Sequence record: PV574017.1
Direction: 5' to 3' (one strand)
From: Escherichia phage EcM-vB1
Length of the DNA stretch: 64,000 nt
Shown here piece by piece: positions 61,687-63,884 of the stretch. The notes under the pieces were generated by a model. It saw nothing but the letters and a program-made list of their open reading frames with translations. It searched no databases and was not told the origin of the DNA. The position numbers and the translations under genes were made by a program. Within the stretch, counting starts at the first letter, position 1; each line of letters opens with the position of its first letter.

Positions 61687-62622
61687 TTACCTCTCTGCTA
61701 GTTTTGCTTCTAGAACTTCAATACGCTTCAGAAGGTCTTGAACAACCTGCATAGTATCAAGGAGCATAGGAGCTGAGTCTAGCTCTTTCTGTTCTTGCTC
61801 TACACCATCATTGTCGTGGAACCTACGAGTCTTAACATAAAGAGGTTCTACCTTTTCTGCTTGCTGTGCAATAATACCACGACGAGTTCTTCCTTGCTCA
61901 TCATTGTTATACACAAATGATTTGAAATCCAAACCTTTAATAGCTTTGATAGCTTTCTCAGGGGAAATATCTTGGATATCATGTTTTAATCTTTCATCTG
62001 ACACGGGATTCAGAGCAAGAGTGTATGTTCCAGTAGAGCCGGGTTGCCAAGTATAATATAAAATCTCATTCCTGTTTGGTCGAAGTGTTAGACGGCAACC
62101 GTATTTGTTGTCTTCATCACCTGCAACGTGCCAGCAAGAATCGGCAAAAGTTCCGGCGTCGTTGTGAATCATGCCAACATGAGTGGTGGTCTTGTATCCC
62201 CCACTAGATGATTGAGAAGCACTTAGTATGGAATTGAAGGAGAAGTTAGACCCTAGCCCTTGGTTGTCCATGGAGAATGTTCCTTTCCTAGCTCCTGTTT
62301 CACTCCAAGACATCAAAGTGCCAAATCTAGAAACATACCTATCAGAATTCAGTGTACCAGAATCGTCGAAAGCTAACTGCTTGGTAACTCCTTTAGTTTT
62401 ATTGTAGACGTCAATGATTCCATAGTAAGCTCCGTTGATGTAGGCATCAGTTTTGAGAGTAGTAGAAGCTTCTACTTCTGAACCGATTTTATACTCAGAG
62501 ACAACTGACCCACTAGAAACTTTCGTTCCGTTGGAAGGTCGTGTGGTGTCACTATTAATAACAGACCAAGAAGTATTAGCAGCAACAAATCCACCATGAG
62601 CACGAATAGTCCAAACCCCCAC
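61687..62622 (-). CDS. tail fibre C-terminal part with intramolecular-chaperone autoproteolytic domain
   Basis: C-terminal DERLKHDIQDISPEKAIKAIKGLDFKSF matches S74-type chaperone domain; frame stays open upstream into previous ORF. Confidence 0.65.
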   Translation of the reverse strand: MGVWTIRAHGGFVAANTSWSVINSDTTRPSNGTKVSSGSVVSEYKIGSEVEASTTLKTDAYINGAYYGIIDVYNKTKGVTKQLAFDDSGTLNSDRYVSRFGTLMSWSETGARKGTFSMDNQGLGSNFSFNSILSASQSSSGGYKTTTHVGMIHNDAGTFADSCWHVAGDEDNKYGCRLTLRPNRNEILYYTWQPGSTGTYTLALNPVSDERLKHDIQDISPEKAIKAIKGLDFKSFVYNNDEQGRTRRGIIAQQAEKVEPLYVKTRRFHDNDGVEQEQKELDSAPMLLDTMQVVQDLLKRIEVLEAKLAER

Positions 62623-62696
62623 AAAGTTTCTCGGTATAATGTTGTCAGAGATACTATAACGACCATAAACTGGGTTGGACTGGCTTGCGTCGAAGA

Positions 62697-63884
62697 CTAG
62701 AGTATTATTACGTCCATCAACTGCACCGGACCCGGAGGTATAGTGTCCCCTCCACCAGCCGGATACAAACTGTTATCCGTATAGAATGAATCTTGCACAG
62801 ACGTCCCGAATATCCCTGCATAAGTCCCGGCTGATACACCAGCGACCTTACCTTTGATATTGGGTGCAGCAGAATCATAGATAACACCATTGTTAGATGA
62901 TGTACCACCATCACCGCGACCAAATAACTCCTTAATAGAACCAACCTGAACCCCGTTGCGGTCTGGAACGCGGAAAGTAGTAGAACCGTCACCAGTAGAG
63001 TACTGTCCACGTTTTTGGGCATCACTAAGCCATTCAGAATCTGAGATAGGGGATAACAGCTGTGCATAAGCCCAGAGATCTGGGTACTCTGAACGATTAA
63101 GAAGCTGACCGTCTGACGTTACCTCAAAAGCTGGAATAAAAGCTCGACTGTCACGTAAATGGAAATCACCAATACCAAAGTTAGAGATACCGCTCATCGT
63201 AGGACCACCAGAGCCACCACCACTGTTTCGAAGCTGTCTCAAAGTAACCGCATCATAATCGCCAACTGCATCAGGGACAGTTACTGGTTGAGTGAAAGTA
63301 ACTTTCTGTGTGAGCTGTTTGATATCAGAGTTAATCCCTGTACGAGTAACACCTACCGTACGACCTTTAGAGTCTTTAACATAAGAACCAATTGCAGCAA
63401 AAGGCAAATCCTCAATCTCAGGACGGTAACGTTTAGAATAAACTGGATACTTAGTTTCTACCCCAGAGTCATTCTGGTCAACAACCTGAAGACGACCAGC
63501 AGAATGAATCTCTACACCTTGAACTGAAGAGGCATAACTACCAATCTTGATTGAGTTATCAGTAGTAACTTTCATCATATCAACTGATTCTACACCATTA
63601 GCTCCAGTAGAACGGAATGGGGTATCATTAACAACCCAAGGGTCTTCTCGGAACAGCGCACCAGACATAATAGGTTGAATCGAATCCAGCACAAAATCTT
63701 TAGATGCACCCTCTGTTTTAGTTTGATAGGTAGCAGCTGCGTCGGTTTTCTGTAAATATTTTCCGGTGAGGTTAATAGCTCCAGCCTGTCCATCTACAGT
63801 AGAAACCCCAACAACAGCCGCGTCTCTGGTTACAACCACATGAGGCATCATTATACCAGATTTGGGCATTAATTCTCTAGACAT
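62697..63884 (-). CDS. tail fibre N-terminal part (probably same gene as 61687-62622)
   Basis: AAGGAG RBS; frames would merge at C4 run 62747-62750. Confidence 0.6.
   Translation of the reverse strand: MSRELMPKSGIMMPHVVVTRDAAVVGVSTVDGQAGAINLTGKYLQKTDAAATYQTKTEGASKDFVLDSIQPIMSGALFREDPWVVNDTPFRSTGANGVESVDMMKVTTDNSIKIGSYASSVQGVEIHSAGRLQVVDQNDSGVETKYPVYSKRYRPEIEDLPFAAIGSYVKDSKGRTVGVTRTGINSDIKQLTQKVTFTQPVTVPDAVGDYDAVTLRQLRNSGGGSGGPTMSGISNFGIGDFHLRDSRAFIPAFEVTSDGQLLNRSEYPDLWAYAQLLSPISDSEWLSDAQKRGQYSTGDGSTTFRVPDRNGVQVGSIKELFGRGDGGTSSNNGVIYDSAAPNIKGKVAGVSAGTYAGIFGTSVQDSFYTDNSLYPAGGGDTIPPGPVQLMDVIIL

Follow-up and report, generated by a model that had tools for sequence, protein, structure and literature searches.

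In the 64,000-nt stretch of Escherichia phage EcM-vB1 analyzed in this study (PV574017.1; hereafter referred to as the window), positions 61687-63884 on the minus strand were identified as one gene encoding the distal subunit of the long tail fibre, which is represented by two open reading frames (ORFs). Most probably, this split is the result of a single under-called base in a base run and not a property of the phage. The genome belongs to Kuravirus (phiEco32/SU10-like podophages) and is near-identical to those of the Escherichia phages EcP-vB and EcK-vB. While the gene is interrupted here by a 1-nt deletion, restoring one G yields 732 codons, not the approximately 720 proposed in an earlier note on this DNA. 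The repaired 732-aa protein contains its sole stop at the end and shows two substitutions compared to MN03. Comparison with relatives identified SU10 gp13, MN03 gp021 and Bas87_0009 as orthologues of the whole gene.

Six-frame translation and the ORF list place the upstream ORF, with an ATG start and 395 aa, at 62697-63884 (minus strand). It covers the N-terminal region, which is conserved, together with the greater part of the putative Gp12-like receptor-binding domain RBD1. Residues 1-385 are authentic, whereas the final ten (PVQLMDVIIL) represent an out-of-frame read-through; the truncated 42-kDa product would end in ...PPGPVQLMDVIIL, and no record of exactly this 395-aa product was found in the public assembly collection. 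The second ORF (61687-62622, minus strand) encodes 311 aa when counted from its GTG codon. As the earlier note had pointed out, its frame stays open upstream past the end of the first ORF: it extends 50 codons further 5' of the GTG, up to 62772, so that 76 nt are shared with the end of the upstream ORF, relative to which it lies in the -1 frame. The authentic downstream part spans 61687-62730 (minus strand; residues 386-732 and the stop codon) and contains the end of RBD1 with the conserved IPRNFVGVWTIRAHGGFVAANTSWSVINS, a putative T5-like RBD2 and a C-terminal chaperone. The only good ribosome-binding site of the whole gene is the Shine-Dalgarno sequence AAGGAG at 63891-63896 (minus strand), 6 nt before the ATG at 63884. 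Reading the sequence 5' of the internal GTG at 62622 (...CCGAGAAACTTT) revealed no Shine-Dalgarno motif.

The frameshift site was located at 62731-62733 (minus strand), where alignment showed GGG on the coding strand of EcM-vB1 (CCC on the plus strand) versus GGGG in MN03, phiEc_1 and Ec3-ASingh. This run of three instead of four G is the single length difference between EcM-vB1 and MN03/phiEc_1 across 2.35 kb of a multiple alignment. The earlier note had placed the merging of the frames at a C4 run at 62747-62750. This run indeed exists, but the frames merge about 15 nt away from it, and the interval suggested for re-sequencing (62740-62760) does not include the actual site. We also considered a fusion at the C4 run and rejected it, as the relatives are identical at this run and differ in the next one. 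A shift there would yield ...GGGGHYTSGSG..., whereas the true junction reads ...GGGDTIPPG|SGAVDGRNNTLVFDAS...

The locus was compared with related genomes. It is 100% identical to EcP-vB and EcK-vB, and its identity to some ten further Kuravirus genomes amounts to 95-99.8%. A single ORF is found at this position in MN03 and phiEc_1 (2199 nt each), SU10 (2172 nt) and Bas87 (2169 nt), and an uninterrupted frame of approximately 720-735 codons would be expected of an SU10 gp13 orthologue; EcM-vB1 shows two frames instead, because one base is absent at 62731-62733. MN03 gp021 differs from the EcM-vB1 gene in being one ORF instead of two with a missing base. Its residues 1-385 match in one frame (99.5% identity), and in the -1 frame residues 385-732 match perfectly (100%), a two-frame match that is far beyond chance. 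The downstream half is identical to MN03 at the DNA level, with zero codon differences, and thus shows no sign of decay.

With a 171-aa query that bridges the junction, tblastn was run against 50,697 phage records, and the best 60 records were taken. In 58 of these 60, including Kuravirus, T5-like phages and Wifcevirus, the query is contiguous in a single frame. The only split junctions among the best 60 records are those of EcP-vB and EcK-vB, both of which originate from one Egyptian study. The proposal of the earlier note that both ORFs belong to one gene, parted by a frameshift, was thus right. More distant homologues from metagenomes are likewise unbroken through the conserved ...PVYGR...IPRNFVGVWTIRAHGGF.AANTSWSVINS... 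segment 3' of the junction. The deposited annotation of the sibling records is unreliable: in EcK-vB, fibre fragments are called 'outer membrane protein' and nozzle fragments 'viral capsid protein', and the EcP-vB record has no annotated features at all over the 8.3-kb tail region.

Based on synteny and sequence, the EcM-vB1 fibre gene is the orthologue of SU10 gp13. Cryo-EM of SU10 assigned gp12 to the proximal and gp13 to the distal protein of the long tail fibre, gp16 to the short fibre and gp17 to the nozzle (PMC9509320). The gene order in the window (proximal fibre, distal fibre, holin, endolysin, short fibre, nozzle) matches the annotation of MN03 and SU10. On the minus strand, the ORF list and this gene order place the holin at 61376-61594 (72 aa), the endolysin at 60855-61346 (163 aa) and the nozzle protein at 57012-60029 (1005 aa). 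The SU10 gp16 orthologue, a short tail fibre of 267 aa, is found at 60039-60842 (minus strand), has a TTG start after GGAGGT and shows the length annotated in MN03 and SU10. Holin and endolysin thus lie within the tail module, between the long- and short-fibre genes, an arrangement that is kept in MN03, SU10 and Bas87. The Kuravirus distal fibres (SU10 gp13; MN03 gp021, YP_010674079; phiEc_1 BEH83405) share their genomic position with the EcM-vB1 gene, which also resembles SU10 in the N-terminal region, whereas the receptor-binding part of SU10 gp13 is divergent, with no more than 53% of the DNA query matched.

The fibre gene is flanked by two GC-rich hairpins, each with a TTCG loop, which were read directly from the sequence. 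One of them (GCTCCC-TTCG-GGGAGC, 63900-63915, minus strand) is located between the proximal-fibre and distal-fibre genes; the other (AAGCCCC-TTCG-GGGGCTT, 61666-61683, minus strand) begins 4 nt past the fibre-gene stop codon. They resemble transcript-stabilising or terminator hairpins, and both were missed by the terminator scan because they have no T-tract. The scan for promoters and terminators gave counts no higher than chance.

The type of fibre and its biology are already described, both by the SU10 structure and by work on the BASEL phages. In the latter, 'T-shaped' fibres are composed of a Gp12-like RBD1, a T5-like RBD2 and a C-terminal intramolecular chaperone and probably target the O-antigen (10.1101/2024.09.12.612763). 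According to the same study, the T5-like domain of RBD2 is not recognisable from sequence, and receptor-binding domains are swapped horizontally among Gordonclarkvirinae, Wifcevirus and Tequintavirus, some of the latter carrying a T-shaped fibre (10.1101/2024.09.12.612763). All Kuravirus isolates of the BASEL collection were found to be O-antigen-dependent, and one of the phages, Bas93, has a truncated chaperone domain (10.1101/2024.09.12.612763). The repaired EcM-vB1 protein shows full-length homology to the T-shaped dual-RBD fibre of Bas87 (AnnaHegner, Bas87_0009), the Kuravirus exemplar of that study, with 80% identity over 733 aligned columns. Most of the divergence between the two sequences falls at residues ~340-400, where RBD1 is variable and where the frameshift site is also found. 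This end-to-end identity and the orthology to SU10 gp13 bear out the assignment as a tail-fibre gene in the earlier note. Matches to the Collar domain (PF07484) remained below the cut-off of 24 (20.1 and 17.7 bits, the former in the upstream ORF); some fibre homologues carry a precomputed match to this family.

A sequence search against the PDB gave one strong match, LtfA of the T5-like phage DT57C (8HQZ chain d), with residues 203-731 aligning to 559-1071 (E=1.2e-102). The alignment is unbroken at the junction and includes the Ser-x4-Lys motif of the chaperone, whereas LtfA differs in its N-terminal attachment region and contains the Gp12-like segment twice. Since the 8HQZ model of LtfA is limited to its N-terminus, this match represents sequence similarity and gives no structural support for the domain boundaries. 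It indicates that a receptor-binding module may have been exchanged between podophages and siphophages.

The earlier note had also recognized an autoproteolytic-type chaperone in the C-terminal ~100 residues of the 61687-62622 ORF, which agrees with our domain analysis. A Peptidase_S74 domain (PF13884, Pfam cut-off 22) was detected at the C-terminus with 53.8 bits in the downstream fragment (E=2.4e-14) and 52.3 bits in the repaired protein; profile positions 1-55 of 58 align to residues 629-682. The intramolecular chaperone occupies the extreme C-terminus (residues 629-732 of 732; 61690-62001, minus strand), comprising 104 residues up to the stop and starting at S-D-E-R-L-K. Its first residue, Ser629 (codon TCA, 61999-62001, minus strand), is the predicted catalytic or scissile serine and aligns to position 1 of PF13884 and to the serine of DT57C LtfA and S16 gp37. 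Lys634 (codon AAA, 61984-61986, minus strand) lies at Ser+5, as in the Ser1264/Lys1269 pair of T5 pb1. Overall, S629-D-E-R-L-K634 aligns with S-G-I-E-Y-K of DT57C LtfA and S-D-R-R-I-K of S16 gp37.

In T5 pb1, the Thr1263-Ser1264 bond is cut after folding of the trimer, Ser1264 is activated by Lys1269, and the serine departs with the chaperone (PMC4690869). By analogy, the predicted scissile bond in EcM-vB1 is Val628-Ser629, and cleavage of the 79.2-kDa precursor would give a mature subunit of 67.1 kDa and a chaperone of 12.1 kDa. The domain shares with the S74 chaperones of T5 pb1 and the K1F endosialidase the PF13884 match, the lysine at Ser+5 as in T5, the C-terminal position and the size of ~100-130 residues ending in a heptad-like helix; compared to those proteins, self-cleavage of the EcM-vB1 fibre is a prediction. 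Distal fibres of the Kuravirus type also occur with other C-termini. Some of them (P0001, P0004, P0005, P0007; 508-625 aa) share the N-terminal region and RBD1, followed by unrelated C-terminal modules showing no S74 match, and in a 339-aa variant (P0008) the N-terminal ~227 residues are joined straight to an S74 chaperone, with the receptor-binding domain absent.

Judging from these homologues, three chains of the fibre protein would form a trimer, in which the conserved N-terminal ~230 residues presumably attach the fibre to the proximal subunit, which is encoded by the gene ending immediately 5' of this one. The Gp12-like domain and the T5-like distal domain would bind surface glycans, probably the O-antigen. 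The C-terminal 104 residues are predicted to act as an intramolecular chaperone that, once the trimer is correctly folded, may cut itself off at Val628|Ser629 via Ser629 and Lys634, leaving a mature fibre protein of 67 kDa and freeing a fragment of 12 kDa. The apparent split is due to the base missing from the C4 run (C3 at 62731-62733), most probably an under-call carried into the assemblies of EcM-vB1 and its siblings.

The split most likely arose through base-calling or in an assembly of low accuracy and is not a biological feature, since at least seven other genes show such losses, the sibling assemblies differ from one another at base runs and every other relative examined has a single frame. 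A tblastn search with the MN03 proteome revealed at least eight MN03 genes that are split across frames in the window, all but one by loss of a single base. Apart from the fibre gene, frame breaks were found at about 11497, 12922, 21545, 22662, 24087, 42442 and 45289, and the break at 24087 results from two bases lost in a TC repeat. The genes affected include those homologous to the aminotransferase, GGACT and HNH endonuclease genes of MN03 and to its gene for a 398-aa protein. Compared to MN03, and independently to Ec3-ASingh, EcM-vB1 shows many isolated 1-nt deletions, mostly in short runs of A, T, G or C, and essentially no isolated insertions of like kind. Further isolated deletions were noted at 1828, 3086, 6244, 13051, 14412, 16230, 24486, 28933, 38043 and 56947.

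The comparison with the siblings shows the same bias. Across 24.8 kb, EcM-vB1 and EcP-vB differ by 4 substitutions but by 12 indels; all 12 are deletions in EcM-vB1 and are located at base runs or dinucleotide repeats. EcK-vB has three more base-run deletions compared to EcP-vB within 8.3 kb, which break neighbouring tail genes. At 22659-22665, EcM-vB1 reads C3-G-C5, EcP-vB C2-G-C6 and Ec3-ASingh C3-G-C6; the loss of one C in different runs is clearly a signature of noisy base-calling, not of descent. The deletion at 62731-62733 is common to EcM-vB1, EcP-vB and EcK-vB; by contrast, many of the remaining base-run deletions occur in just one of the three. EcM-vB1 corresponds to neither PV591328.1 nor PV591327.1 and represents a third, near-identical assembly; the offset to EcP-vB shifts by ~500 bp between 25000 and 61600, which points to a larger length difference within this interval. 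A literature search on EcP-vB and its sibling phages returned no publication.

Because all three siblings carry the deletion at 62731-62733, a genuine recent mutation has to be weighed as an alternative, and we regard it as unlikely. In this case, a 1-nt deletion, possibly inherited from a common ancestor of EcM-vB1, EcP-vB and EcK-vB, would have turned the fibre gene into a fresh pseudogene encoding a 395-aa fragment that lacks part of RBD1, all of RBD2 and the chaperone, and virions without functional long fibres would adsorb via the short fibres alone or on permissive hosts only. A fibre-defective phage is not impossible, as the long (lateral) tail fibres of T5-like phages are dispensable on rough strains and Bas93, a Kuravirus with a truncated chaperone domain, has been isolated. 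However, the lineage would need at least seven further frameshifted genes, and the differences between siblings at many base runs, with indels and substitutions in a ratio of 12:4 and in one direction, form a non-evolutionary pattern. The identity of the downstream half to MN03, the O-antigen dependence of all BASEL Kuravirus isolates and the isolation of EcM-vB1-type phages on clinical multidrug-resistant E. coli argue against it as well. If the frameshift were real, it would point to a Kuravirus propagating without functional long fibres, a case of some, though modest, relevance to receptor biology and to phage-therapy stocks.

Two further explanations accept the sequence as it stands. Programmed or leaky -1 ribosomal frameshifting at U CCG GGU (62736-62730), by which both the truncated 42-kDa and the full-length fibre protein would be made, appears highly improbable. 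The required shift is indeed -1, and since the A-site GGU can re-pair with GGG, the slipped product would equal the intact protein, giving exactly the ...IPPGSGAVDG... of the relatives. However, the overlap contains no canonical X XXY YYZ heptamer, with U CCG GGU as the sole near-match, and no stimulatory structure was detected in the 91 nt downstream (MFE -14.9 kcal/mol versus a shuffle mean of -17.0, z=+0.74). Moreover, the two-frame layout is absent from all other relatives examined, in which the extra base is present, so that there is nothing conserved which selection could have shaped. It is similarly far-fetched that the C3 run is real and that full-length fibre arises only via low-level -1 slippage at this site, restoring the ancestral sequence; this would result in a tunable mix of truncated and complete long-fibre subunits, or in few fibres per virion. 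Two independent functional genes, an N-terminal shaft protein and a receptor-binding tip with chaperone translated separately from GTG 62622, are hardly conceivable: ORF callers list both ORFs and the depositors of EcK-vB annotated them separately, but the GTG has no ribosome-binding site and is preceded in its own frame by 50 codons of homologous coding sequence. In addition, the break falls within the putative Gp12-like domain, and all homologues examined, even distant ones, show this domain without interruption. The comparative data thus effectively refute the existence of two genes.

The under-calling of one base, which we consider the most probable cause of the split, is mainly of value for annotation: the fibre gene and at least seven others would have to be described as intact genes with base-run errors, and not as pseudogenes, split genes or recoding sites. 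Any 'pseudogene' or 'recoding' calls elsewhere in the window deserve equal suspicion. The main practical use of the fibre type lies in the prediction of host range.
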